A DNA stretch of 64,000 bases from a virus, in UHGV virus genome UHGV-1882326. One strand, 5' to 3'. Numbering within the stretch: the first letter of the stretch is position 1; every line of letters starts with the position of its first letter. The notes beneath the pieces were generated by a model. It was given only the letters and a program-made list of their open reading frames with translations, searched no databases and was not told the origin of the DNA. This document shows positions 2,846 through 56,740 of this stretch, one piece after another. Both the position numbers and the translations under genes were made by a program.

Positions 2846-4504
2846 TTACTGATTCTTTATCCACACAAGTCTTACTTTACAGTTGCAAGTTTTATCATCG
2901 CCTTGGGATTTAAGATAAATTAAAGCGTTATAAGTGCCATCTGGTGTTATATCTAAAGAGCAATGACCTACAAATGGGTTAGTATCGTCAATAACCAAAG
3001 TAGCAGATATTGGAGTATAGCCACTTTGCATTGCTAAATCATAACTATACCATTGTTCCTCACCACTTGCGATTGTCAATTCATAAGCAACATCTGTATA
3101 TTTAATAATAGAATTTACAGTATTTGCGACTTGATTTTCGTCAAAAGTCATTTTCCAAGCGTTCAGACTTTCAACGTCATGCTGACACCTTTCAAATGAA
3201 TCTGCTAATGTTTTAAACTGATTATAATTTACTGCGTCATTTTTCTGTTGTCCTGCTCTAATACCTCTTAAAATCACGTCTTGATTTGTGTCACCAGTAT
3301 GAACACCAGTAATAACTTTTACATATTCTGGAACTTTTGTATCAGTATTGATAGAAGCCTGTGAAGTTTCTCTAATAAAATATGTGTTATTTGCACTATC
3401 ATTAATCCCACCATAAATCTCTACAGCAGAAGTATTGATTAATTTATACTGTTTCATATCCAAGTCTTTATTTGGAACAAAATCACTTGGCAAATGAGTT
3501 TCAAAATACTTTTTATTAACGGCATCAGTATCTTGAATAGGGGTATCTACACCTCTAACAATAACTGGATTGCCGTTTTTGTCAGTTAAATCTAATATAC
3601 CACTTGCTTCGTCACCATTTACAGTAAGATTAATACACATATTGGCGTTATCAGCTTTCTGAATGGTAACTTGATTTTCCGTAACAGAATTTACAATATC
3701 ATCAACATATTTCTTATTAACAGCCATATTATCACCAGTAGGTTCAGCAACACCATCTATTTGAACTGGTGCAAGTGTTCCATCTTGAACGCCTTTAGGA
3801 TAAGTACCAACCAGTAAATGATATTCCTCACCAGTCATGGCAGAAGTTATAAAAGGAACTAATCTACCGTCTGTTAATGATACTGGGTCAGCAAAATAAA
3901 ATCTATCCCCACTGTCCATTACCATAGAATTTTTAAATACATAAGCCAAGTCATTTTGACCTAAAACAAACTCCTCTTGCCCGCTATCCAAAACTGGATT
4001 ATGCTCAATTCCATATTCTTTTATGTTATCAGCATATTTCTTATTTACGGTATCATTATCATTTGTTGGCGTATCAATTCCCCTAAGTTTAATATCTTTC
4101 TTTGTCTTAGGATTAGATAATTCAACAGTAGTTCCGTTATCAATTTCACTTGTAATTTCGTGAGGAATGATACCAACATATCCAGTTTCACCTAATGTCA
4201 ATTCACTTGCATTTTCAACTTGATAACCAGACATATTTATAGCACCTTGCATAGTACCACCAGATAACGGCAAGTAATCACCAGTAGCAGTCGTTCCACC
4301 ACCCGTTGTAACAGAAGTAACAGAACTTATCTTTTTCCATACGCCATTTTCTTTATCCCAACGGTACTCTTGCATATTATTATCAACTTCATAAAAAGCA
4401 CTACCGTTAGGAACATCTTCTGTTGGTTTTACATCTGTGGTATTGCCGTAAAATTCTGTAAAAATTGTGCCGTTAGCACCACCAACTTTGTTTACTGTTC
4501 TCAT
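2846..4504 (-). CDS. tail fibre / receptor-binding protein with internal repeats
   Basis: 552 aa. It is the last gene of the tail module. A repeated motif (D/N)xVNKKY(A/V/F)D occurs 3 to 4 times (DTVNKKYADNI, MAVNKKYVDDI, DAVNKKYFETH). It is Gly/Thr/Asn-rich, as is typical of fibres. Confidence 0.55.
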   Translation of the reverse strand: MRTVNKVGGANGTIFTEFYGNTTDVKPTEDVPNGSAFYEVDNNMQEYRWDKENGVWKKISSVTSVTTGGGTTATGDYLPLSGGTMQGAINMSGYQVENASELTLGETGYVGIIPHEITSEIDNGTTVELSNPKTKKDIKLRGIDTPTNDNDTVNKKYADNIKEYGIEHNPVLDSGQEEFVLGQNDLAYVFKNSMVMDSGDRFYFADPVSLTDGRLVPFITSAMTGEEYHLLVGTYPKGVQDGTLAPVQIDGVAEPTGDNMAVNKKYVDDIVNSVTENQVTIQKADNANMCINLTVNGDEASGILDLTDKNGNPVIVRGVDTPIQDTDAVNKKYFETHLPSDFVPNKDLDMKQYKLINTSAVEIYGGINDSANNTYFIRETSQASINTDTKVPEYVKVITGVHTGDTNQDVILRGIRAGQQKNDAVNYNQFKTLADSFERCQHDVESLNAWKMTFDENQVANTVNSIIKYTDVAYELTIASGEEQWYSYDLAMQSGYTPISATLVIDDTNPFVGHCSLDITPDGTYNALIYLKSQGDDKTCNCKVRLVWIKNQ

Positions 4505-21914: not shown

Positions 21915-22961
21915 TTAGCCAACAGTTACATTAGCATAACCTTCTACTGCTGTATTCTTAGTGAGAACAGCATGGATAGTAGTTGTACCAGTTGCTACAC
22001 CCTCTACTTCACCAGTTGCATCATCCACTTTAGCAGTACCAGCAGCACCACTTGTAAAAGTAACAGCAGTTGGGTCTACTAACTTAGGTAAAGCATTTCT
22101 GATAAGAGCATAAACCTTAATAGTTTCTTTTTCACTTACTTGTAAATCAATATCAGCCGGAGTTAAAGCCAATGCGTAAGCGTCATTCTCCCACTGAGCA
22201 GTAGACAGAATTTCCTTAATAGTACCATAGATAGCTTCATCACTACAGCTAGAGGTTTCAGCAGATGCCAGAGCAGAACCATTAAGAGGCGTATTAGCCG
22301 CACCAGTCATACTCATAGAGATTTCCTGTGAGCCGTTTAACATTAAACGTGGAATGTCAATCTGAACCTCGCCAACTTTAGTAGTAGACGCTTCATTTGG
22401 ATTAGTGCTACTACCTGCAAACAGAGTACCAGTCATTACAGCATGAACGGTAGCAGGAATAAAGTTAGCACCTACTGTCAGCACTCTCATAGAATCGTTG
22501 TTTACTACATACTTAACGCAATAAACATCACCAGACATAGCACCTGCAACAGTGATAATCTTATTGTTGAAAGTACCTTTAACCCATGTAGAGCCATTAG
22601 GCTTTTTGTACCAACCAATAGTACCAAAGTTACCAAATGCTACAGGAGTACCACTTACGGTAATCTGTCCTGCGTCTGTTACAGTAACTTCCTCAGAAGT
22701 TAAAGCACTACCACCAATCGCAATATCAGAACCAATGTTCTTTGCGATAAATTCAAGACGGAACATTACATCAGTAAGAGTTATGTCCATTGTAGAAGAA
22801 TGTGCATATTTGCCATACAGTTTTGCACCTTGTCCACCACGAATATCTTCAAGAGATACATCAAAACTAAAAGTAGAATCTGTTAAAGTTTTTGCAGTAG
22901 CAAACAGTTCATCGCCTACAAAAAGGTCAACATTTGCTACACCAGCTAAAAAAGCATCCAT
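21915..22961 (-). CDS. major tail protein with C-terminal Ig-like (Big_2-type) domain
   Basis: 348 aa and Thr/Ala/Gly-rich. The C-terminal TGTTTIHAVLTKNTAVEGYANVTV is Big_2-like. It lies upstream of the tape measure block. Confidence 0.55.
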   Translation of the reverse strand: MDAFLAGVANVDLFVGDELFATAKTLTDSTFSFDVSLEDIRGGQGAKLYGKYAHSSTMDITLTDVMFRLEFIAKNIGSDIAIGGSALTSEEVTVTDAGQITVSGTPVAFGNFGTIGWYKKPNGSTWVKGTFNNKIITVAGAMSGDVYCVKYVVNNDSMRVLTVGANFIPATVHAVMTGTLFAGSSTNPNEASTTKVGEVQIDIPRLMLNGSQEISMSMTGAANTPLNGSALASAETSSCSDEAIYGTIKEILSTAQWENDAYALALTPADIDLQVSEKETIKVYALIRNALPKLVDPTAVTFTSGAAGTAKVDDATGEVEGVATGTTTIHAVLTKNTAVEGYANVTVG

Positions 22962-23013
22962 TTATATTACTCCTTTCATATTTCAAACATTTTTTATATT
23001 TCAGACATTTGTG

Positions 23014-23043
23014 AACTACCCATCAGCTAAAGCTAATGGGATT
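23014..23043. repeat. palindrome-bearing miniature element, copy A
   Basis: The sequence AACTACCCATCAGCTAAAGCTAATGGGATT contains a 22-bp imperfect palindrome CCCATCAGCTaaAGCTAATGGG. The same core occurs at 32725 and, inverted, at 55451. Confidence 0.7.
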
Positions 23044-23048
23044 TCTGA

Positions 23049-23849
23049 TTATATTTTTTTAAATCCTTGTCCAATATTCTTTTTATTTACAAAAGCATCT
23101 GCATATTTGCCTTTCTTATTCTTATATGCAAAATGCTCTATAGGCTTTTTAAACTTTCCACCATTTGCTTCAAAATTCTTGTTCACAACGTAATCAATCT
23201 GTTCAACAACAGCATTAAACAAAGACGTAAAACTATAAAAAGTCATTTCAAGCAAATCTTTCTTTAACATGCCGTTATGTGCTGAAACAATAGATATTTT
23301 TCTTTCTAATGTTATAGGTTCTTTATTCTTATTCACCAAACTATAATATTCATCAACAGCTTTCTTATAATCTGGATTTAAATCTCTTTCATCTTCATAA
23401 TCATAGATATTCTGATATTGTATAATTTGAATTATATTATCAAAATCCTTATAATCTATAATCACGTCATTTATTTCAAGAATAAATTTACCTTTTTCAT
23501 TAATCTTGATTTTGAACTGTTCTTCAATTTTATTAAGTCCAAAACATAATTCTATAATTCTGACAAATTGCCAATATCTCATAGAATGTTTTTCAACTTT
23601 TCCAAACAAATCTTGTCCTAAAACCATTTGCAAAAGAAATTGTAAATAAGAACTCTGAATGATTTCTATATCTTCAAATGTGTTTTTATCTATTGTAAGC
23701 ACGTTATAACAGTTTACAAAATCGTTAGCTTCTTTTAACTTAACTGGATATAATAATATTACTTGTTTATGTCTAGTAACATAAGGGATAGGTTTGTCCA
23801 TTTCAATATAGTTCTGATAAGGTGTTATATCAAACTTCATTAAACACAC
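23049..23849 (-). CDS. hypothetical head-tail joining/structural protein
   Basis: 266-aa ORF between the head and tail modules. Confidence 0.3.
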   Translation of the reverse strand: MCLMKFDITPYQNYIEMDKPIPYVTRHKQVILLYPVKLKEANDFVNCYNVLTIDKNTFEDIEIIQSSYLQFLLQMVLGQDLFGKVEKHSMRYWQFVRIIELCFGLNKIEEQFKIKINEKGKFILEINDVIIDYKDFDNIIQIIQYQNIYDYEDERDLNPDYKKAVDEYYSLVNKNKEPITLERKISIVSAHNGMLKKDLLEMTFYSFTSLFNAVVEQIDYVVNKNFEANGGKFKKPIEHFAYKNKKGKYADAFVNKKNIGQGFKKI

Positions 23850-27183: not shown

Positions 27184-28377
27184 TCATTGCTTGTTCTTAA
27201 CATCTAATACAATTTCTGTGTGATTTTTTCCTTGAAGTAAAGAATCTATTGCTTCTATAAGTTGTTGTTTTGTAGGAATTTCAAAATTTCCTTTTACTCG
27301 TAAAATTTTATATCCTTTACTTCTAACGAAATAATCTCTTCTTATATCTCTTTTTTTATTTACTTCTAAATTATGCCAATATTCTCCATCGTATTCAATA
27401 TCTATTTTTTCACCTTGTATTTCTAATAAGCAATCAAAAACCGCTCTTTCTAAAACAAAACCAAACGTAACTTTATAATTCGGATAAGTTTCTTTTACAA
27501 GCTCACAAAGTTTCTTTTCTGGCTTAGAAGAACGAACATTACCATTTTCAGCCATAGATTCTATTACTTTTTGTCTTATCTCTGGAACTTGCAAAATATA
27601 AGGTTTACCATACTTTTTTAAAACAGTTTGTACTGCTTTATTCCTTGTTTCTAAAGATTCAAAAGCACTTTTTCTACCATATTTTTTTAAATTAGTTAAT
27701 AATGCTCTTTCTCTTATTTCTGAAACTTGCATAGCGTTTGGTTTACCATATTTTTCAATCATGGTTTTTTGTGCTTTTTCTTTTACTTCTGGTATTTGCA
27801 TTGTATAAGGCTTCCCATATTTATTCAAATTATTTTGAACTATTTTTTCTTTTATTTCAGAAGAAGCAAAAACATTAGAAACGCCATATTTTTCTAAATT
27901 AGTTTGCTCAATTCTTTCTTTTATTTCGGGAACTTGTAATACACAAGGCTTTCCATATTTTTTTAAATTAGTCTTTTCTATTTTCTTTTGAATATCTCTA
28001 TTTTGTGCAGGAAAATCAACTCCATATTTTTTTCTGTTTGTGCTTTTTATTTTTTCTTGTACACCTTCTATCCCCATAGGAGTTGTTGTACCATATCTTT
28101 CTAAGAAAGTATTTTCTCTTTTTATTTGCGAACATTTTTTACAATATAACTTACCATCTTTTTCAGTGTTTTTTAAATACCCAACATAAGTAATATTTAA
28201 CTTTTTCCCACAAATATCACAAAATGCTATTATTCTTTTTTGAGAAGAAGGAGGTAAATCTTTAAGTTTAACTTTAAATTTATCAAATCTTTTGGTATAT
28301 TTATACCCTTTTTCAATATAATAGTTAAAATTTCTTCCTGCCCAAGTCATTTCAATTTCTTGGTTTTCGTCTATCAT
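27184..28377 (-). CDS. freestanding homing-endonuclease-like protein (Zn-ribbon, KYG repeats, C-terminal Vsr/DUF559-type nuclease domain)
   Basis: 397 aa. It has an N-terminal Cys4 ribbon (CDICGKK...CKKCSQ) and about eight ~33-aa repeats each containing KYG(K/V)P (e.g. KKYGKPCVLQVPEIKERIEQTN). The C-terminal ERAVFDCLLEIQGEKIDIEYDGEYWHNLEVNKKRDIRRDYFVRSKGYKILRV matches the DUF559/Vsr-like fold. It has its own promoter-like sequence and a terminator hairpin at 27100..27150. Confidence 0.6.
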   Translation of the reverse strand: MIDENQEIEMTWAGRNFNYYIEKGYKYTKRFDKFKVKLKDLPPSSQKRIIAFCDICGKKLNITYVGYLKNTEKDGKLYCKKCSQIKRENTFLERYGTTTPMGIEGVQEKIKSTNRKKYGVDFPAQNRDIQKKIEKTNLKKYGKPCVLQVPEIKERIEQTNLEKYGVSNVFASSEIKEKIVQNNLNKYGKPYTMQIPEVKEKAQKTMIEKYGKPNAMQVSEIRERALLTNLKKYGRKSAFESLETRNKAVQTVLKKYGKPYILQVPEIRQKVIESMAENGNVRSSKPEKKLCELVKETYPNYKVTFGFVLERAVFDCLLEIQGEKIDIEYDGEYWHNLEVNKKRDIRRDYFVRSKGYKILRVKGNFEIPTKQQLIEAIDSLLQGKNHTEIVLDVKNKQ

Positions 28378-32185: not shown

Positions 32186-32664
32186 TTGCTAATATTAAAA
32201 TCGAACTTATCAAAATCTGTAGGCATTTGTTGTGCTTTATCATTTAATGTATTTACTTGTCCCATAATGATATTGTATTTTCTAAATAACCTATACATAT
32301 CAGAAGTTACGTTTCTATCCCTATGAGCAATAGCAATGTCTACTACTTTATTCATAATTTCATAAACTTCGCTAAACTCTTTTAAGACCGTAGAAAACAT
32401 ATCAGATAAATTAGAATAATTTCTATCATCTTTATGGACTTCTGGGCGAATAGAAGATAAATTATAATTATCTTTAATTTCACTCACAACATCTGCAAGT
32501 AAAGGCATAGTATGACTTATGTTAAGATGTACAATTTCTCCTGCGTTTGGCATAGAAAAATCGTTTAGCATAACAGAAGCTACTCTATCCAAAGTTGCGT
32601 TCAAATCAAAAAACGCTCCATACAGCACGTCTAACGCTTCACTTGTTTCTTCATGTATCAACAA
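32158..32664 (-). CDS. hypothetical head morphogenesis protein
   Basis: 168-aa ORF. Confidence 0.3.
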   Translation of the reverse strand: MLIHEETSEALDVLYGAFFDLNATLDRVASVMLNDFSMPNAGEIVHLNISHTMPLLADVVSEIKDNYNLSSIRPEVHKDDRNYSNLSDMFSTVLKEFSEVYEIMNKVVDIAIAHRDRNVTSDMYRLFRKYNIIMGQVNTLNDKAQQMPTDFDKFDFNISKWGIKGVKL

Positions 32665-32718
32665 ATCAACTCACCTCTTTCAACCAGTGTTACTCACTGT
32701 TACTAATCAGTACCTAGT

Positions 32719-32749
32719 CAACTACCCACAAGCTAAAGCTAATGGGATT
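32719..32749. repeat. palindrome-bearing miniature element, copy B
   Basis: The sequence CAACTACCCACAAGCTAAAGCTAATGGGATT aligns with copy A over the core and flanks. Confidence 0.7.
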
Positions 32750-32761
32750 CCTTGCTCTTTT

Positions 32762-33721
32762 TCATTGATTTCGTGACCGCTCCGCAGAATCAGAAATGGC
32801 TTCTTCACTTTGAGGTCTACCAACTTGTCCACTACCCCCACTCATGGTATGAATAGACAAAAGTTGTGATAAATTGTCTAAGAAATCACTATTATGTGCT
32901 TCTTCCAACATTCTCTCAAAATCCATAGGTTTATATCCAAAAGCAGAAGCATAAGCACTTGAATTAAGCACCATACCCACATCTGCTAATTTCATAATAG
33001 CATCTTGCTTCTTTTTACGCCAAAATGGTTGTGTACATCCATCAAACGTAAACTTAAACTTAAATTGTTTAGTTTTCTGATTAGCATAGAACTCTAAGAA
33101 ATTGTTAAATTGAGTATATAATTTAGCTACAATCTCATAATCAGCAGTAATAGCCGCTTGAAGTTCTTCGTTTGACATTCTATCCGTAGCGTAAATTAAA
33201 CGGCTTGCAGAACTACCATATCCCACTGTATCTTTAGCGGCAGTAGTAGCCATATCCGTATTTTTATCCTCAAACTGTTTAAATTCAACTTCTTCAAGAG
33301 GTAAGGCAATAGAACGAACAATTTTATCTTGTGTCATAGAGTTTTTCAATCCACTAGCAACAAGTTTCATTAATCGTCCTAATGTACTTGGTTTGACTGC
33401 AAATCTATCAGCAACCTCACCAGATTTTGCAGAATCTTGCATTTTCATCTCACCGTAAAGTATACCAAAAGCACTGGCAATATCTTTATTTTTTTGTAAC
33501 TTTGCAATCTCTGTGTTATTGAAAACATTCTTTAAATACGGAGCCATAAAAGGAACACTTGCAAAATTACTTGTGTCAAACTTGAAAGCCCAGAAACCAT
33601 CATTAGGACTTGTCTGGTGATAAAGAGTAAAAGTGCCGTCACGATTACTTAAACCATTTGACGGAATATAATCTTTAAAATCTTTACCATCCCATACTTC
33701 TCTAAGGTATTTCTTAAACAC
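32762..33721 (-). CDS. portal protein, C-terminal portion (putative exon 2)
   Basis: 319-aa ORF with a GTG-initiated ORF call. The reading frame stays open further upstream, to 33748. Together with the 214-aa ORF at 35528..36172 it gives a ~530-aa product in the canonical position between TerL and the scaffold. Confidence 0.5.
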   Translation of the reverse strand: MFKKYLREVWDGKDFKDYIPSNGLSNRDGTFTLYHQTSPNDGFWAFKFDTSNFASVPFMAPYLKNVFNNTEIAKLQKNKDIASAFGILYGEMKMQDSAKSGEVADRFAVKPSTLGRLMKLVASGLKNSMTQDKIVRSIALPLEEVEFKQFEDKNTDMATTAAKDTVGYGSSASRLIYATDRMSNEELQAAITADYEIVAKLYTQFNNFLEFYANQKTKQFKFKFTFDGCTQPFWRKKKQDAIMKLADVGMVLNSSAYASAFGYKPMDFERMLEEAHNSDFLDNLSQLLSIHTMSGGSGQVGRPQSEEAISDSAERSRNQ

Positions 33722-33837
33722 AGGAGCATAACACTGAACCTCACATAACTAAAATTACGTAATTCTTGGGAACTTCCAACTATTGTCAGAATATTTGCCA
33801 AGCTAACCCCGTAGTTCCTACGGTTTTTATATATTAT
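33722..33837 (-). ncRNA. IS605-family right end / omega-RNA scaffold region downstream of tnpB copy 1
   Basis: In minus-sense, the sequence after the tnpB stop is CCGTAGGAACTACGG (hairpin) ... AATTACGTAATTTTAG. It is conserved with the region downstream of tnpB copy 2 (GGTAGGAACTATCGG ... AATTACGAGG ... TTTTGTAG). Confidence 0.5.
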
Positions 33838-34962
33838 TTAAACACTTAAAATTCTCAATCCTTCATTCAAAATATTAATAGAAGCATTATTATCTCTATC
33901 TAATTTTGAACCACAGTTAGAACAAATCCAGTATCTAATCTCAACAGACTTTTTACCACCATTAACACCACAACAATGACAAATTTGAGAAGAAGGAAAA
34001 TATCTATCAATTACAGATAATATCTTTCCATACCATGTAGATTTATAAGTCAACATTCTACGAAATTCAGACCAAGAAACATCATTCACATGTTTATTAC
34101 GAACATTTGAGTCTGTACTTTTCATAGATTGAACATCTAAATCTTCAATACAAATAATATCATATTGTTTTACAAGATTAGTAGTCAATTTCTGTAAAAA
34201 GTCTTTACGTTGATTAGATATATGTTTTTGTAAATTTGCAACTTTAATTCTTGCTTTATTCCAATTAGAACCACCGATTGTTTTTCTCAATAACTCTCTT
34301 TGTAATTTAGCAAGTTTCTTTTCTGATTTTTCATAAAATCTAGGATTTTTAATCTTAACACCGTTAGATAAAATTGCAAAATCTACAATTCCTAAATCTA
34401 TCCCAACATTTTTATTTGTTTTTGGATATTGTGGAAATTCTATATCAGCGCAACATAATGAACAATAATAATGTCCGTTAGGTTCTTGTGATATAGTAGC
34501 ATTAAGTATTCTTCCTTGCGGAATTTGTTTATCGCGAATTTTTACACAACCTAATTTTGGAAGTTTAATATGTTTATTTTCAAATCTTATATTACCACCA
34601 GCTGTAGTTTTCATATAACTTGTAGTATAAGATTGATATCTATTTTTCTTAGACTTAAATTTTGGATACCCAGTATGCTCTTTAAAGAATTTTTGATAAG
34701 CATTATCTAAATTTTTTAATGAATTTTGTAAAGAACATTTATCTGGTTCTTTAAGCCATTCATTTTCTTTCTTTAATTGAGTAAGCATTTTACTTGTGTC
34801 ATAAAAGCTTAAACTCTTTTTATTTTCTTTATACTCAGTTATCTTTTTATCTAAAAAATAATTATAAACATATCTACAACAACCAAAAGTTTTTTGTATT
34901 AATTCTTGTTGTTTTTTATTCGGATAAATTCTATACTTAAAAGCTTTTTCCAACAATATCAC
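33838..34962 (-). CDS. tnpB: TnpB (IS200/IS605-family OrfB; RNA-guided RuvC-like nuclease)
   Basis: 374 aa. The N-terminus KAFKYRIYPNKKQQELIQKTFGCCRYVYN is the OrfB_IS605 helix. A RuvC-like split domain is followed by a C-terminal zinc finger CHCCG...CSNCGSKLDRDNNASINIL. Confidence 0.9.
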   Translation of the reverse strand: MILLEKAFKYRIYPNKKQQELIQKTFGCCRYVYNYFLDKKITEYKENKKSLSFYDTSKMLTQLKKENEWLKEPDKCSLQNSLKNLDNAYQKFFKEHTGYPKFKSKKNRYQSYTTSYMKTTAGGNIRFENKHIKLPKLGCVKIRDKQIPQGRILNATISQEPNGHYYCSLCCADIEFPQYPKTNKNVGIDLGIVDFAILSNGVKIKNPRFYEKSEKKLAKLQRELLRKTIGGSNWNKARIKVANLQKHISNQRKDFLQKLTTNLVKQYDIICIEDLDVQSMKSTDSNVRNKHVNDVSWSEFRRMLTYKSTWYGKILSVIDRYFPSSQICHCCGVNGGKKSVEIRYWICSNCGSKLDRDNNASINILNEGLRILSV

Positions 34963-35527
34963 TTCCTTTCATAAATTAACTTATAACATAAACCTATATA
35001 AATGTCAAGTTAAATTATGAAAAGAATTATTTTAGTTTAAATAACATATAAAAACCGTAAGTTACTTTAGTTATATTTGGAGGTTGTCGTTCACATAGGC
35101 TCGCTAGTTCCTATGCAGTTCTCTAATGAACTTCTTGTACTTTCATACAAGCACAGACTATATCTTATCCCTCACCATTATGTGTTAGGGCCTACCCACT
35201 TCCACACGCTTGTGTGTACTTCCCTCAAGAGGAATAGTCGTTGAAGTTTTCCTTTCGGACTTACCTGCTAATTGCCTATTTTTCAGTGTTTAGGATTTAA
35301 CCATGCACCATTCATTCAATTTTTTCTACTTTCGTCACATTCACGCTTATACCATTTAAGCACATTTTTGTGTTGTTTAAGGTATTACGTTGTAGTTTGA
35401 ATGACTTTAAGGTTTCCTAGCAATTCAAGTAGTATTGGATGCCAAAAGCATCTCTACGTGCAAGTTTCCCTACACGCTGACTATTTCGTAAAACACTTAC
35501 TTATTCATACGAATATGTATTCACGAT
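34963..35527 (-). ncRNA. group I intron ribozyme core (5' part of an IStron-like element)
   Basis: 565-nt ORF-free segment, GC-richer than the AT-rich gene background. In minus-sense it contains an R-like element UUCAACGACUAUU (complement of plus 35231..35246) and an S-like element AAGAUAUAGUCU (complement of plus 35155..35170), which can pair GACUA/UAGUC to form P7. Boundaries are approximate. Confidence 0.6.
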
Positions 35528-36172
35528 TTAATCAATGTCCACTCCTTGCATACCAATGAAGTACATCATGTCGAAGTCGAATAATAAACCACTTTCAAAA
35601 TACCCAGTTAAAATACATCTATCTTGTGGTAATGTTTGCAGAGCATATTTAGGATTATTTCTATCCATGTTTGTTCTGAAACTTGTATAATGTACTTCAT
35701 GCCTTAAAAGCTGTTTTACAACTTTTTTAAATTCTCCTTTGTAATCAAAATTATCAAGAAATTTATAAATTCTTGCTTTATCTGCTTTATAATTATCAGA
35801 CTTATAATCTTCTTTCTTAGCGTTCTTACAAGTAATCTGCAAATCAAAAGAAAGGAGATTTGTGTAGTATTCAATAGTTCTGTTATAAATCATATCGAAT
35901 ACTTCCATAAACTCACTATAAGCCTGTAAATTTGTAGCACCAGTTTTATACTCACTTAAAGCCTTTATAATATCGTCATATTTTGGAATTTTAGCATTAT
36001 TGTTAAGATTAACCAGATTTTGATTACTTAACCATGGACTATATACTCCAAAACTATCCAATCCATATAAACTCTGAGCAAAACTTACTACATCATAAAC
36101 CTGTTGTTCTGATAACATAACAGGTTCTTCTACTTTAGGAGTTAATCTTTGACTATTTTTCGTAGTTCTCAT
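35528..36172 (-). CDS. portal protein, N-terminal portion (putative exon 1, ORF runs into intron)
   Basis: 214-aa ORF immediately downstream of TerL. Its stop lies inside the intron-like segment. Confidence 0.5.
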   Translation of the reverse strand: MRTTKNSQRLTPKVEEPVMLSEQQVYDVVSFAQSLYGLDSFGVYSPWLSNQNLVNLNNNAKIPKYDDIIKALSEYKTGATNLQAYSEFMEVFDMIYNRTIEYYTNLLSFDLQITCKNAKKEDYKSDNYKADKARIYKFLDNFDYKGEFKKVVKQLLRHEVHYTSFRTNMDRNNPKYALQTLPQDRCILTGYFESGLLFDFDMMYFIGMQGVDID

Positions 36173-36243
36173 CTCCTTTCTTCAAATATTTTTTATTTAA
36201 AGGCAGTCAAATCATAGCAGTTGATAAGACCGCCTATATACAC

Positions 36244-38124
36244 TTAGAACACAAGTTGGTCTAACTCATCTAAATTGGTATCTCTTTGTTCATCTACAGC
36301 ATACTTATCGCCTATTAAGGTTGCAATATGGTTTCCGTAACTCAAAGCTACAATTTTATCCTTTGTCGCACTATTTCTGTTAGGTTCTGATAATTTCAAA
36401 ATACCGTTATTCCATGTTTGAGTTAAACTAATAGCTTCTGACATCATTAATGCAGTTTGAACATATGGCAACTTAATATTAACTTTTTCCTCAGAACTCA
36501 TAGTAAGATAATTTACATCTTCTTCAAGTTCTGTTTCAATCGTTAATTCATCCACCAAAAATTCAATCATTTCATTGTCTAGGGCTTTCTTTAAATCAAG
36601 CCACATTAAACTATTTCGTTCACTTGTACCAACAATAGGTATAATACATGGTATAGCTTCTGCATCAACTGTTTTGCCTTTAAGTTCTTGAATTTTAGCA
36701 TCTGGAACTATCTGTAAAGCAGATTCATAACAAACTGTAAATCCATGTGGATTCCAATTACTTCGTGATGGGTGTTCAAAGGGTTTAGATAACTCTGTAT
36801 AATAAAGAGTACCACCGCTTCTTTCGTCCATTACGATATAATCTGCTTGGTAATCCCAAAAGAACTCTCTAATCTTTTGTTGAAATCCCTCACTATCACT
36901 AGCAGGGTGCGTTCCAATATATTCTACTTTTCGTCTTGTCTTACCATCTTTCATAATGACAGACATACAACCAATAACACTATTATCGTTATCGTTTGTA
37001 TTGCTGTTTACAAAAGCATAATCAATGAAAAGTAAACGTTTTTCAAATTCACCTTTAGGTCTGTTACCTAAATCAGTTGACATAAATATATCCATAGGCG
37101 TAGGTGGTTTATAGGCTTTTTTTATCACTTGATTCTTTCTGAAATCTTCAAGTAAGAAGAAAGCACCCTCTGTTTCACCATACATTTCATTCAAATCTTC
37201 TGTTACAAAGTCAATATCTGAATCAAATTCTTTATCATGCCAGTAATCAGCCCATGTTTTAAGGTTAAATAAAATTGCAAGGAAAATATTAGATGCAAAG
37301 AAATTATATGTATGTTTCGTTTGTGTCATACACTTTTGAACTACAAGTTTAAATTCTTTCCAAAACCATTCATGTTTAAATCTAGCAGATGTAATATATG
37401 CTGTTTTACACTGTTCAATCCAACGTGGTAATGTTTTTCCGTCTTTATCCTTGTATTCGTCACGTAAGGTATAAGCCGCTTGTCTTGGATGCGCCATTTT
37501 AGAAAATACAGAATCAAGTATTGTCTTTTTAAGTAATCGACACTCTTCATATATAAGAAAAGTACTTCTCTCTCCCCTACTTGATTCCAAACAAGGCAAT
37601 ACAGTTATCATACTTCCGTTAATCTTTTTCAAGTCTACTTCTATAGCATCATTATTATAACGAAAGACAATATCTCCGTTATCATAATAATATTTTAAAA
37701 CAGATGAAAGTTTTTTACATAATTCATCTTCCATTTTCTTTTTAACCATCTTAGTAGCTTGGGGAATTGTGGAAGAAGTAATAACAACTTCGGCATATGG
37801 AAATAATAATGCGTGAACCATTCCTGCAAGAGCAATAATAAATGATTTACTTCCACCTCTGCTGCAAATTCCATACCATACTTGTGATATTCCAACTAAA
37901 TACAACATAACATGCTGAAACGGATAAAGTTTTATCTTTAATCTTCTTTCAGCATATATATTCCAATTACGTCTATAGAATGTTGTCCATTCCTTAATAT
38001 TTTTCTTTCTTTGTTCCCATGGTAATCTTCTGTCAGTTTTTTTCTTTTCTTCTTGTTTCTTCTTTCTTTTTTCTACAAGGCTAATAATATCTATATCTTT
38101 GTTTTCCTCTAACATAGACATCAC
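36244..38124 (-). CDS. terL: terminase large subunit
   Basis: 626 aa. Walker A-like motif GICSRGGSKSF. The C-terminal nuclease region has acidic motifs (FIDYAFVNSNTNDNDNSVIG). It is translationally coupled to the upstream gene. Confidence 0.85.
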   Translation of the reverse strand: MMSMLEENKDIDIISLVEKRKKKQEEKKKTDRRLPWEQRKKNIKEWTTFYRRNWNIYAERRLKIKLYPFQHVMLYLVGISQVWYGICSRGGSKSFIIALAGMVHALLFPYAEVVITSSTIPQATKMVKKKMEDELCKKLSSVLKYYYDNGDIVFRYNNDAIEVDLKKINGSMITVLPCLESSRGERSTFLIYEECRLLKKTILDSVFSKMAHPRQAAYTLRDEYKDKDGKTLPRWIEQCKTAYITSARFKHEWFWKEFKLVVQKCMTQTKHTYNFFASNIFLAILFNLKTWADYWHDKEFDSDIDFVTEDLNEMYGETEGAFFLLEDFRKNQVIKKAYKPPTPMDIFMSTDLGNRPKGEFEKRLLFIDYAFVNSNTNDNDNSVIGCMSVIMKDGKTRRKVEYIGTHPASDSEGFQQKIREFFWDYQADYIVMDERSGGTLYYTELSKPFEHPSRSNWNPHGFTVCYESALQIVPDAKIQELKGKTVDAEAIPCIIPIVGTSERNSLMWLDLKKALDNEMIEFLVDELTIETELEEDVNYLTMSSEEKVNIKLPYVQTALMMSEAISLTQTWNNGILKLSEPNRNSATKDKIVALSYGNHIATLIGDKYAVDEQRDTNLDELDQLVF

Positions 38125-40958: not shown

Positions 40959-42248
40959 ACCTTACACTCCTAGTGAACTACTACAAAATTAAAAACCTCG
41001 TAATTTCTTGCTTCAACGTCCTCGTAACCTACTAACTCCACAAGCGTAAATTCCGATAGTTCCTACCGTACTATTTATTATTAAGTTGCACTTAAAATTC
41101 TTAGTCCTTCATTTAATATATTAATTGCGGCATTAATATCTCTATCATGCACAGTACCACATTTAGAACATCTCCACTGACGTACAGATAAATTCTTTGT
41201 ATCTTTATTAATATAACCACATACATTACAAGGTTGACTTGACTTTGTAAATCTATCAATCTTTATATATGTGCGTCCATTCCAATCAGATTTATAACTT
41301 ATCTGTCTTGTCAATTCATACCAACCACAATCAAGTATTGATTTTGAAAGATTATGATTTTTCACCATATTAGAAATTGCTAAATCTTCACTAACTATTA
41401 CTTGGTTTTCGCTAATAAGTTTATATGAAATTTTATGCAAATAATCTATTCTGGTATTTTTAATTTTTTCATATACTTTTGCAAGTTTGATTCTTTGCTT
41501 CTGATAATTCTTACTACCTTTTTCTTTATGAAAAAGTTTACGCTGTTCTTTAGCAAGTTTTTTCTCATATTTTTTAGTAAGTTTAAGATTATCAAACTTT
41601 TCTCCATCAGAAGTTATAAGTAAATCCTTAATGCCTAAATCAATTCCAATAGAATTGTTTGTATGCTCTAATGAAATATGTTCTGTTTCTATTAAAATAG
41701 ATACAAAATATTTACCAGAGGGAACTTGCGAAATAGTAGCAGATTTAATTTTTCCAGTAAATTCTCTATGAATTTTTGCTTTCACCCATTTAAGTTTTGG
41801 AAGTTTAATTTTATTGTTATCAAAAGAAACTTCAATATTATTATTTGCGAAATTTGTTTTATAAGATTTTTTATTATCTCGTTTGCTTTTGAACTTTGGA
41901 TAACCAGTATGTTCTTTAAAGAATTTTTGATAAGCGGAGTCCATATTATAAATGGAATTTGTCAAAGACCATTTATCAACCTCTCTAAGCCATTCATATT
42001 CTTTTTTTAGTTGTCTATTACAATAGTTATTCAAATCAATTTTACTCATAGAAACACTTTCATTTTTATATTTATTGATTTTAAGATTTAAACACTGATT
42101 ATAAACAAACCTGCAACAGCCAAAAGTTTTTTGGATTAAAATTTTTTGTTCTTTGTTTGGATATAATCTGTATTTATAGGCTTTTAACATTTACTTATCA
42201 CCTCCAATCTATTTATATTATATATTCTACTACATTTTCATTAACTTG
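40959..42248 (-). mobile_element. IS605-family (IS1341-like, tnpB-only) insertion in an intergenic site
   Basis: It carries tnpB copy 2, a 58-bp upstream region with a -10-like TATAAT, and a 122-bp 3' region conserved with the 3' region of copy 1. No tnpA is present. Confidence 0.6.
41081..42190 (-). CDS. tnpB: TnpB (IS200/IS605-family OrfB)
   Basis: 369 aa. It starts MLKAYKYRLYPNKEQKILIQKTFGCCRFVYNQ and ends in the zinc finger CNVCG...[19 protein letters not shown]. It is paralogous to copy 1. Confidence 0.9.
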   Translation of the reverse strand: MLKAYKYRLYPNKEQKILIQKTFGCCRFVYNQCLNLKINKYKNESVSMSKIDLNNYCNRQLKKEYEWLREVDKWSLTNSIYNMDSAYQKFFKEHTGYPKFKSKRDNKKSYKTNFANNNIEVSFDNNKIKLPKLKWVKAKIHREFTGKIKSATISQVPSGKYFVSILIETEHISLEHTNNSIGIDLGIKDLLITSDGEKFDNLKLTKKYEKKLAKEQRKLFHKEKGSKNYQKQRIKLAKVYEKIKNTRIDYLHKISYKLISENQVIVSEDLAISNMVKNHNLSKSILDCGWYELTRQISYKSDWNGRTYIKIDRFTKSSQPCNVCGYINKDTKNLSVRQWRCSKCGTVHDRDINAAINILNEGLRILSAT

Positions 42249-42923
42249 TCAACCATTTTCATGCAATTTCTTTAAATTTTCTATTATTAAATCACCGACA
42301 ACAGCCCAACAAAAGTATTTATTCTTATTCTGCCCATAACATAAATCAAGCATAATATTAACAAGTCTGTCTTTGTTTGGACAAATTTCTTCTGCTCTTG
42401 CTCTAAATTCATGCTGTATGCTCATTACTCTTATATTTGCTTCTTCTGTACTTAAATTTTTCTCAATCACAATTTTCTTAAATTGCTTAATACGTTTAAT
42501 GTATTCTTTTTCAAGATTTTCAATATCTTCTCTTGTTTTAGGTGAACTTCTTTGAATAGGAGATTTAAGAAATTCATAATCAAAGCCTTTGGCTTTAAGT
42601 TCTGTCACTCTACCATCAAATTCACTTTCTATATATCGACAAATTCGGTTCATAGTAGAATCAGAAATGTTTACAGGCATTTTTATATCGTACCATTCTA
42701 AAAATTTTTGCTGTTCTTCTGTAAGATTTTGTTTTTTTCTTAGTTCATTTACTTTACAGCCATAAAGCATAACACATTTAAGGTCACAATTTTTTATATA
42801 ACTATCGTAATCTTTCTTTAAAGAAGAATAATTATAAATAAAGTAATAAGGCTTTTTATCTGTTACGATTATTTTATCTAATGTAGTGGTACATAATTTT
42901 GAAACATACCAATACTTAGGCAT
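42249..42923 (-). CDS. hypothetical protein
   Basis: 224-aa ORF. Confidence 0.3.
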   Translation of the reverse strand: MPKYWYVSKLCTTTLDKIIVTDKKPYYFIYNYSSLKKDYDSYIKNCDLKCVMLYGCKVNELRKKQNLTEEQQKFLEWYDIKMPVNISDSTMNRICRYIESEFDGRVTELKAKGFDYEFLKSPIQRSSPKTREDIENLEKEYIKRIKQFKKIVIEKNLSTEEANIRVMSIQHEFRARAEEICPNKDRLVNIMLDLCYGQNKNKYFCWAVVGDLIIENLKKLHENG

Positions 42924-52818: not shown

Positions 52819-53103
52819 ATGATTATGAAAGAATTAAAAGAAACAGTAGACATGATGAACAGTGAAGATTATAAAGAAAGATTTAAAGCTGAATATTGGC
52901 AGACTTATATCAGATATGAAAAATTAACAAAAATGGTTGAAAACTGGGAGAAAGGTGAATTAAATTTTACACCTACTTGTGATAAAAAAATATATAAGAC
53001 ACAGTTACTTCATATGGCTAACTATCTTAGTATTCTTAGAGTAAGAGCAAAGATTGAAAACGTAGATTTAGGAATTGAGGAAGAAAATGAAAAAGACTGT
53101 TAA
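52819..53103 (+). CDS. small hypothetical protein
   Basis: 94-aa ORF. Confidence 0.3.
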   Translation: MIMKELKETVDMMNSEDYKERFKAEYWQTYIRYEKLTKMVENWEKGELNFTPTCDKKIYKTQLLHMANYLSILRVRAKIENVDLGIEEENEKDC

Positions 53104-55450: not shown

Positions 55451-55472
55451 CCCATTAGCTTTAGCTGATGGG
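55451..55472. repeat. 22-bp palindrome, copy C, at the left end of the tnpB copy 3 element
   Basis: CCCATTAGCTTTAGCTGATGGG, 44 nt upstream of the tnpB copy 3 start. It is the reverse complement of the core of copies A and B. Confidence 0.7.
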
Positions 55473-55515: not shown

Positions 55516-56627
55516 ATGTTGGTAGCATACAAATACAGATTGTATCCGAATAAAGAACAACAAGAATATTTTGCTAAATGTTTTGGGTGTGTACGATTTA
55601 TCTATAATCGTATGCTTTCAGATAAGATTGACTATTATAAAGAAACAAAGAAAAAGCTGAATAATACACCTGCTCAGTACAAGAAAAAGTTTGAGTGGCT
55701 AAAAGAAGTAGATTCACTTGCATTAGCAAATGCTCAAATGCTCAAATGAATTTGCAGACAGCCTATAACAATTTTTTCAAATGTCCAGAAGTGGGTTTTC
55801 CAAAATTCAAAAGCAAGAAGAATAATCACTTCTCTTATACTACAAATAATCAGGGAGGAAACATTTATGTGACAGACCGATACATAAAACTCCCTAAGAT
55901 TGGACTTGTTAGAGTTCGGAAACATAGAGATTTTGAAGGACTAATTAAGTCTGTTACTATTTCTAAAAGTCCGTCTGGTAAATACTTTGTTTCAGTATTA
56001 GTAGACCAAAAAGATAAAGAAAAATTAATTCCAAACAATAACCAAATTGGAATTGATTTAGGTATTAAAGAATTTTGTATTACTTCTGATGGAGAGATGA
56101 TTCAAAATCCAAAGTTTCTTAGAAAGTCTGAAAAGAAATTAAGAAAATTACAAAAGGATTTATCTCGTTGTCAAAAAGGAAGTAAAAATAGAGAAAAATG
56201 CAGAATTAAAGTCGCAAGACAACATGAAAAGATTGCAAATCAACGTAAAGATTTTCTACATAAGTTATCTAGGCGATTTATTAATGAAAACCAAATCATT
56301 GCATTAGAAACTTTGAAAATTAAAAATATGATGAGTAATCATAAATTAGCAAAATCAATAGCAGATGTATCATGGTCTGAATTTGTAAGACAATTAGAGT
56401 ATAAGGCTCAGTGGTATGGTAGAGAAATCGTAAGGATTGATACTTGGTATCCATCAAGTCAGATATGCTCTAATTGTGGTCACAAAGACAGAAGAAAGCC
56501 ATTATCAGTAAGAGAATGGATCTGTCCTAATTGTGGTACACATCATGAAAGGGATATAAATGCAGCTATAAATATTCTTAAAGAAGGTTTGAGAATTAAA
56601 ACGGCAGGAACTGTCGAGATAGTCTAA
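55516..56627 (+). pseudogene. tnpB: tnpB copy 3 (IS605-family), frameshifted by an 8-bp tandem duplication
   Basis: It is split into 55516..55749 (MLVAYKYRLYPNKEQQEYFAKCFGCVRFIYNR) and 55695..56627 (RuvC-like domain plus zinc finger CSNCG...[19 protein letters not shown]). The sequence TGCTCAAA occurs twice in tandem at 55731..55746, and removing one copy restores a single ~370-aa frame. Confidence 0.85.
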
Positions 56628-56692
56628 GTAAACTTGTGCGGTTACGCATATTGATTAGAAAATCCAATGAGTTTTAACTCATGGGTAGTTCA

Positions 56693-56740
56693 GAGGTAAG
56701 TTAATGAGTAGATGTAGAGGTAAGTTAATGAGTAGATGTA
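56693..56740 (+). repeat. perfect 24-bp tandem duplication abutting the right end of the tnpB copy 3 element
   Basis: GAGGTAAGTTAATGAGTAGATGTA occurs twice, immediately after ...ATGGGTAGTTCA. It duplicates the N-terminus of the downstream ORF (MSRCRGKL-MSRCNC). Confidence 0.9.

Follow-up and report, generated by a model that had tools for sequence, protein, structure and literature searches.

Short palindromic elements between late genes of a tailed phage as probable deletion remnants of IS200/IS605-family tnpB insertion sequences

The window analysed here is a stretch of 64,000 nt (64 kb) of the virus genome UHGV-1882326. It contains three tnpB genes and, according to a pattern search, exactly three copies of a 22-nt hairpin, named A, B and C (Table 1). 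The original prediction of a 22-bp palindrome occurring three times was reproduced by this search, and the pattern gave no match in 100 dinucleotide-preserving shuffles. Its consensus CCCAT(C/A)AGC was slightly off for B, which reads CCCACAAGC... at this position. Copy C is the left-end (LE) hairpin of the insertion sequence (IS) carrying tnpB copy 3. It lies upstream of this gene as described, at a distance of 43 nt (and not 44 nt) before the ATG at 55516. A fourth hairpin of like shape (CCAATGAGTTTTAACTCATGGG) was detected with a structure-aware pattern and is the right-end (RE) hairpin of tnpB copy 3.

A and B had been described as continuing into a terminus like that of the copy 3 element, and this was confirmed on the minus strand. 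A runs on into GATGGGTAGTTCAC and B into TGTGGGTAGTTGAC, and the copy 3 right end is CATGGGTAGTTCAG. Both hairpins are followed by the right-end tip TAGTT(C/G)AC. A repeat search aligned A (23012-23044) with the copy 3 right end (56660-56692) over 33 nt at 85% identity (pair I15), and two of the five differences restore stem base pairs. Taken with the empty result of the shuffles and the exact identity with IS ends in relatives (see below), this match leaves a practically negligible probability that the hairpins are chance palindromes without relation to an insertion sequence.

Table 1. Features of the window and the sequence or comparison on which each is based. Positions refer to the whole 64-kb window; a slash marks the insertion point.
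Feature	Position	Strand	Sequence or basis
Element A, 48 bp, probable terminal-only remnant of a tnpB IS	23011-23058	-	Identity with the IS ends at this site in L050/L052/L041; empty sites
A left end, 18 nt	23041-23058	-	AAAAATATAATCAGAAAT
A hairpin	23019-23040	- (pattern match on +)	CCCATTAGCTTTAGCTGATGGG; 0 mismatches in pattern search
A right-end tip, 8 nt	23011-23018	-	TAGTTCAC
Target motif (TAM) TTTAA directly 5' of A	23059-23063	-	Empty allele GGATTTAA/AAATGTYTG
Duplicated target adjoining the A right-end tip	22978-23010	-	AAATGTCTGAAATAT (22996-23010), AAA, AAATGTTTGAAATAT (22978-22992)
Upstream ORF at site A, 266 aa, function unknown	23049-23849	-	Last two codons and stop from element A
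Downstream virion structural gene, Ig-like domain, major-tail-like	21915-22961	-	Pfam Big_2; phrog_2729, phrog_341
Element B, 48 bp, probable terminal-only remnant	32717-32764	-	Empty versus occupied alleles; matches to IS ends
B left end, 18 nt	32747-32764	-	TGAAAAAGAGCAAGGAAT
B chimeric hairpin	32725-32746	- (pattern match on +)	CCCATTAGC TTTA GCTTGTGGG; 1 mismatch in pattern search
B right-end tip	32717-32724	-	TAGTTGAC
Target motif ATCAA (TCAA) 5' of B	32765-32769	-	Empty versus occupied comparison
tnpB	33838-34962	-	
tnpB	41081-42190	-	
Copy C, LE hairpin of the resident tnpB copy 3 IS	55451-55472	+ (pattern match on -)	
tnpB copy 3, pseudogene in the window	55516-56627	+	Frameshift by an 8-bp insertion, CAAATGCT, at about 55727-55734
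Copy 3 right end	56664-56693	+	Hairpin 56664-56685; tip TAGTTCAG at 56686-56693

Intact copy 3 ORFs of 367-368 aa were found in four relatives (L012, L033, L079 and L085). For the tnpB gene at 41081-42190, a right-end tip TAGTTCAC (40973-40980, minus strand) lies just 14 nt before the ATG of the next ORF. Upstream of the gene (42191-42300, minus strand), no recognisable left-end hairpin was present, and a promoter-like sequence TTGACA...TAGAAT was found instead. The possibility that A and B are the right ends of tnpB copies 1 and 2, the genes at 33838-34962 and 41081-42190, was considered and rejected: the ORFs directly upstream are a protein of unknown function and the portal C-terminus.

The portal gene of the window is interrupted, its N-terminal part lying at 35528-36172 and its C-terminal part at 32762-33721. 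The insert of 1.8 kb (33734-35530, minus strand) comprises a strongly structured 5' part of 569 nt (z=-5.0) and the tnpB gene at 33838-34962. With TTGAT in front of it and TCAG at its end, it resembles group A IStrons (PMC4227781). The portal gene was intact in 10 of the 10 relatives examined; there the codon in question reads ATAGAT, so that no TAM is present. A similar element, 92% identical, was found at another TTGAT site in L064. An E-value scan of 32600-36300 gave no match to an Rfam model of a group I intron. At 33740-33829 (minus strand) there was a weak match to Ref70, 'Enterococcus sRNA 70' (29 bits, E=0.025), far under the gathering score. The match coincides exactly with the stretch immediately 3' of tnpB in which an omegaRNA would be expected, and the Ref70 family may itself be derived from omegaRNAs.

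The hairpin CCCATTAGCTTTAGCTGATGGG was recovered in a viral contig scan as the conserved LE hairpin of a widespread family of phage tnpB elements. In a genome scan it occurred in 29 loci, mostly in Lachnospiraceae and related gut/rumen Clostridia. At the 34 left ends that were classified in phages and Lachnospiraceae genomes, the hairpin is followed by tnpB or tnpA(+tnpB). A second scan yielded 38 right ends, located 47-97 nt past the tnpB stop codon and usually consisting of a hairpin plus TAGTTCAC. The LE and RE hairpins are 22-nt direct repeats with 17-18 of 22 positions identical, and they have in common the core AGCTTTAGCT and the 3' foot TGGG. The imperfect hairpins are subterminal at both ends and terminal inverted repeats are absent, as in other IS200/IS605 elements.

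The hairpin feet vary together with the sites next to them. At the left end, the foot/TAM pairs were CAAT-TTGAA, AAAT-TTTAA, GAAT-TTCAA and CTAT-TAGAA, and the expected TAM was present at 21 of the 34 left ends compared with 8.8 under permutation (0 of 2000 permutations reached 21). At the right end, the foot/tip pairs GAA-TTC, CAA-TTG and AAA-TTT accounted for 34 of the 38 cases; for A, the pairing of the foot with its own right-end tip is ambiguous, since real right ends differ in their foot register. Comparison of empty and occupied sites gave the targets TTTAA/ for A, TCAA/ for B and TTGAA/ for the element in L080. This covariation of foot and cleavage site is the guide logic of IS608, where the relation of guide to cleavage site is established (summarised in PMC10055086). 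IS608 and ISDra2 also resemble the present elements in their subterminal hairpins without inverted terminal repeats, in their insertion 3' of a target of 4-5 nt and in the complementarity of the bases 5' of the hairpin foot to the cleavage sites, found here for LE and TAM and for RE and tip. In contrast, the hairpin sequence and the targets (TTTAA, TTGAA, TCAA) differ, and the resident elements of the window are tnpB-only.

A cognate Y1 transposase was found in L231 (Lactonifactor), as a 134-aa ORF (3540-3944) between this left end and tnpB (Pfam Y1_Tnp, E=1.4e-34). TnpA homologues are present in L021, L024, L025 and L080. As L080 carries a tnpA+tnpB IS, a close relative of the window phage has a Y1 transposase. 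No tnpA was detected in the window by tblastn with the cognate TnpA (best E=0.9). The sequence ATTGAA/AACG at 53056-53060 of the window is the empty target of the tnpA+tnpB IS that is present in L080 (1035-2750).

Relatives of site A were found via the flanking protein, and the site occurs in three states. The empty state, GGATTTAA/AAATGTYTGAAATATGAAAGG, was found in 10 contigs (L046-L049, L051 and L053-L057). A complete tnpB-only IS of ~1.26 kb occupies the site in the close relatives L050 and L052 (also seen as L041 and L027), with flanks 96-98% identical to the window; this IS is 82% identical to copy 3. The third state, with 48 bp, was found in the window and in the metagenome contig L239. 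Element A corresponds, base for base, to the left end of the full IS through the hairpin, followed by the right-end tail after the hairpin. Its hairpin is purely of the LE type, and its left-end foot AAAT is complementary to the TTT of the TAM. The length of about 30 bp proposed for A and B did not hold: both are 48 bp long by empty-site comparison, since the hairpin is preceded by 18 nt of left end.

The target next to the right-end tip of A is duplicated. Empty alleles have a single copy, and both copies are present in the full-IS alleles (L050, L052) and in the window. A C/T variant and the 18-nt flank duplication were common to A and the full-IS alleles only. Because the full-IS and the 48-bp alleles have the flank duplication in common, A is tied to the full-IS lineage. 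The evidence from these alleles favours an origin of A at its present site from a full IS over a separate insertion. It counts against a deletion that the crossover for A would rest on 4 nt only (TGGG), which is thin for homology-driven recombination.

Flank duplications beside the right end were observed in two independent tnpB IS insertions, at site A (22978-23010, 15+3+15 nt) and at copy 3, where the right flank (56692-56739) is a perfect 24-bp tandem repeat (AGAGGTAAGTTAATGAGTAGATGT, twice). Both adjoin the right end and are not classical duplications flanking both ends. IS200/IS605 elements are not supposed to duplicate their target. The duplicated flank is the predicted omegaRNA guide region, and IS-free relatives have one copy of it, preceded by TTTAA. 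With the second copy, the ribosome-binding site or start codon of the downstream gene was in both cases shifted out of the guide segment. No duplication was seen by eye within 62 nt of the other right ends listed in the scan.

At site B, the empty allele AAATCAA/TAGGGTACTG was found in L059, L063 and L073, and L064 and L066 are also without B. The element was present in five IMG/VR relatives and in metagenome contigs. It has no target-site duplication. In its hairpin, a left-end 5' arm is joined to a 3' arm which, like the tip after it, is of the kind found at L020/L035-type right ends; related subfamily left ends in L001 and L020 come after TTCAA and CTCAA. No full IS was found at site B in the relatives, and a viral-contig scan with the B left end gave only the five known relatives with the 48-bp form; the metagenome scan required the right-end tip and could therefore recover alleles with the short form only. 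From the chimeric hairpin we infer that B, too, probably arose by deletion in place.

Both elements extend into the reading frame upstream. A supplies the stop TAA at 23049-23051, so that the ORF ends in ...GFKNV-stop in the empty allele and in ...GFKKI-stop in the occupied one. The first three bases of B (TGA, 32762-32764) are the stop codon of the portal C-terminal ORF. The intergenic position given in the original prediction is thus not purely intergenic, as each element provides the stop codon of its upstream ORF. Conservation at the same positions in all relatives without an IS605 element had been named as the finding that would speak against an IS origin. Neither element is conserved: A is absent in 10 relatives and replaced by the full IS in 2, and B is absent from at least five and present in others.

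The same comparison bears on the idea that the phage keeps the hairpins to regulate its late operon, for instance as terminators, as binding sites for a protein or as stem-loops with a role in RNA stability or processing. A and B do both lie between late structural genes, and A on the sense strand folds to a stable RNA stem-loop (-14.9 kcal/mol, z=-2.7). However, many close relatives with the same flanking genes lack A and B, the fold of B is no better than that of shuffled sequence (z=-0.5), and the same hairpin and tip end insertion sequences in unrelated phages and bacteria. A terminator/promoter scan gave no terminator-like site on either strand in 22700-23300 and 32450-33050, and the suggested activity as hairpin terminators was not borne out. 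The T-run at A starts 13 nt past the stem and is part of the A-rich left end and the TTTAA target. We consider a regulatory origin highly improbable. REP sequences associated with RAYT are likewise single short imperfect palindromes with a conserved flanking motif, related to substrates of Y1 transposases. They differ in having many copies per genome and a RAYT, whereas here there are two copies without RAYT and a parent IS demonstrable at the same site. With 2 copies in 64 kb and no Y1 transposase homologue in the window, A and B are also outside the definition of REP/BIME.

Deletion alleles of the same kind were found in other phages. L014 carries the full IS and L156 the short form at the same site. 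The hairpin of the latter (CCCATTAGCTTTAGCTCGTGGG) is CCCATTAGC-TTTA-GCTCGTGGG, that is, the LE 5' arm and the RE 3' arm. L185 and L095 may be a second such pair, with right flanks that are alike over ~10 nt only and an L185 left end that was not recovered. Chimeric hairpins are present in B, L095 and L156, and both site B and the L095 site occur with a chimeric as well as with a pure LE-type hairpin. This points to more than one deletion event in place, with the crossover at one of two points, either in the core AGCTTTAGCT or at the foot TGGG. A further mini-element with the LE AGAATCTC[A/G]TCAGAAAT was found at two unrelated TTTAA sites, in L236 and in L030/L217. Here a mobile mini form would fit equally well as two parent insertions followed by two deletions.

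Several other short forms were noted during the scans. In L030 (8472-8518) and L217, this mini-element has its 22-nt hairpin turned round with respect to the flanks (a 'flip'). A third terminal-only element, of 44 bp, is located in L050 at 527-570 (TTGAA/ATAAGGCTACCGCAAT-hairpin-TAGTTCAC). It derives from the tnpA+tnpB IS type seen in L080 and lies inside a homologue of the window ORF 27184-28377; at this position ~1.07 kb of window sequence (27280-28348) is missing. A conserved half-hairpin with tip (ACGCAAGTCTTTAGCTCATGGG-TAGTTCAC) occurs without an upstream tnpB in several viral contigs. Palindromes extended so that a tip flanks the hairpin on either side, e.g. GTGAACTAC-hairpin-TAGTTCAC, were also found without an upstream tnpB. 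Right-end motif variants lacking tnpB were found in L092, L101, L127, L130, L149 and L178 and in L097, L116, L210 and L225.

An alternative is that A and/or B arrived already as mobile 48-bp PATEs, moved in trans by the Y1 transposase of a co-resident element or of the host. Each keeps the TAM, the left-end guide foot, the hairpin and the right-end tip, and cognate TnpA genes exist in related phages (including the close L080) and in Lachnospiraceae genomes. The same mini-element at two unrelated TTTAA sites would agree with such movement, as would the variation of B as presence/absence only, with no full-IS state sampled. In Haloquadratum, moreover, a 52-bp version was suspected by the authors to move (PMC3119063). 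Against this, A agrees in flank duplication and left-end sequence with the full IS that its closest relatives carry at this site, and the two hairpin variants at sites B and L095 fit repeated deletion better than one insertion. The established mechanism of the IS608 type uses two hairpins, one per end (PMC10055086), and A and B have one; the window has no tnpA. Arrival as a mobile mini form is hence judged improbable for these two elements.

A probability of about 0.8 is given to the reading in which tnpB insertion sequences of the IS200/IS605 family lost the interior between their end hairpins and left A and B as 48-bp terminal-only remnants. In the late structural operon, the full element (~1.26 kb) is inserted on the 3' side of TTTAA or TCAA. 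The scar alleles retain the TAM followed by 18 nt of LE, a single hairpin, which is either purely LE-type or an LE/RE chimera, and the RE tip of 8 nt; the interior between the two hairpins, including tnpB and the omegaRNA scaffold, is removed. At 48 bp they are too short for a transposase, and in hairpin and flanks they are the same as the ends of full elements, in keeping with terminal-only PATEs. A core-deletion origin is indicated by the full IS and the scar at the same site (A, L014/L156) and by the chimeric hairpins. The proposed nature of A and B as non-coding, PATE-like IS200/IS605-type derivatives with a left-end hairpin and a right-end tip was therefore retained, and their proposed origin from copy 3 itself was not. 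Judging by the sequences compared, their parents were sister elements located precisely where A and B are now.

The deletion would have arisen between the two hairpins, through either recombination of these short repeats or template switching during replication. An omegaRNA scaffold would span the tnpB 3' end and the right end, upstream of the guide; the final ~30 nt (hairpin and tip) are all that is left of this in A and B, and the 47-97 nt between the tnpB stop and the right-end hairpin of full elements are missing. Rfam at the gathering threshold gave two tRNAs only in the whole window and nothing at A, B or the IS ends. Without coding capacity or an omegaRNA scaffold, the scar most likely does nothing. 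As a side effect, the gene upstream takes its stop codon from the scar, and the late transcript would acquire a stable stem-loop.

The scar allele should escape cleavage by the TnpB/omegaRNA of IS-bearing relatives, because its 48 bp still part the TAM from the former guide-matching flank, and the element would then be stably lost. The homing model behind this prediction is described in PMC10055086. Precise loss of the IS, by comparison, would recreate the TAM beside the target, which could be cut by the TnpB/omegaRNA of co-infecting relatives, reinstalling the element. It is a speculative and rather unlikely extension that scars are the favoured outcome of a conflict between phage and RNA-guided transposon, being immune to TnpB homing, and/or can still be moved by TnpA. 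If single-hairpin elements were still moved by TnpA, they would be among the smallest transposable units known.

The same process is known from Haloquadratum walsbyi, in which 52-bp terminal-only PATEs are what remains of the tnpB-only ISHwa23 (1500 bp) and of the PATE HqIRS46 (390 bp) (Dyall-Smith et al. 2011, PMC3119063). The shortening was attributed to repeat-mediated deletion between near-terminal palindromes, and strains differed in whether a given position held the full or the terminal-only version. The authors put deletion forward as a way to defend against IS605-type elements and suspected some remaining mobility of the 52-bp form. The two systems have in common the parent, which is an IS605-type tnpB-only (IS1341-type) element or a PATE, the loss of its core by deletion between near-terminal palindromes that form direct repeats of 19-22 bp, and fused termini of ~50 bp (52 bp there, 48 bp here). 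The setting differs, with a haloarchaeal chromosome there and a tailed phage of gut/rumen Firmicutes here. The repeats are imperfect here (17-18/22), so that chimeric hairpins show the crossover and two crossover classes can be seen, and the copy number is low (2 in 64 kb).

The PATEs of Geobacillus stearothermophilus (Meers et al. 2023, PMC10055086) also have no protein gene, ends of the IS200/IS605 type and TnpA acting in trans. Unlike A and B, which have one hairpin and no room for a scaffold, they keep both end structures and often encode an omegaRNA. Solo LTRs are comparable by analogy only: one hybrid terminal repeat is left by recombination of two, and the element class and the repeat length differ entirely.

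The process inferred for A and B is already known from haloarchaea (PMC3119063); what is new is its setting in phages of Firmicutes, and this extends known biology without changing it. At site A, the empty site, the full tnpB IS and the 48-bp scar occur in closely related phages, which shows the loss of tnpB elements from phage genomes. Because the end repeats are imperfect, the scar itself shows where the crossover took place. For annotation, short IS-end palindromes between phage genes can be read as transposon scars and not as regulatory sites.
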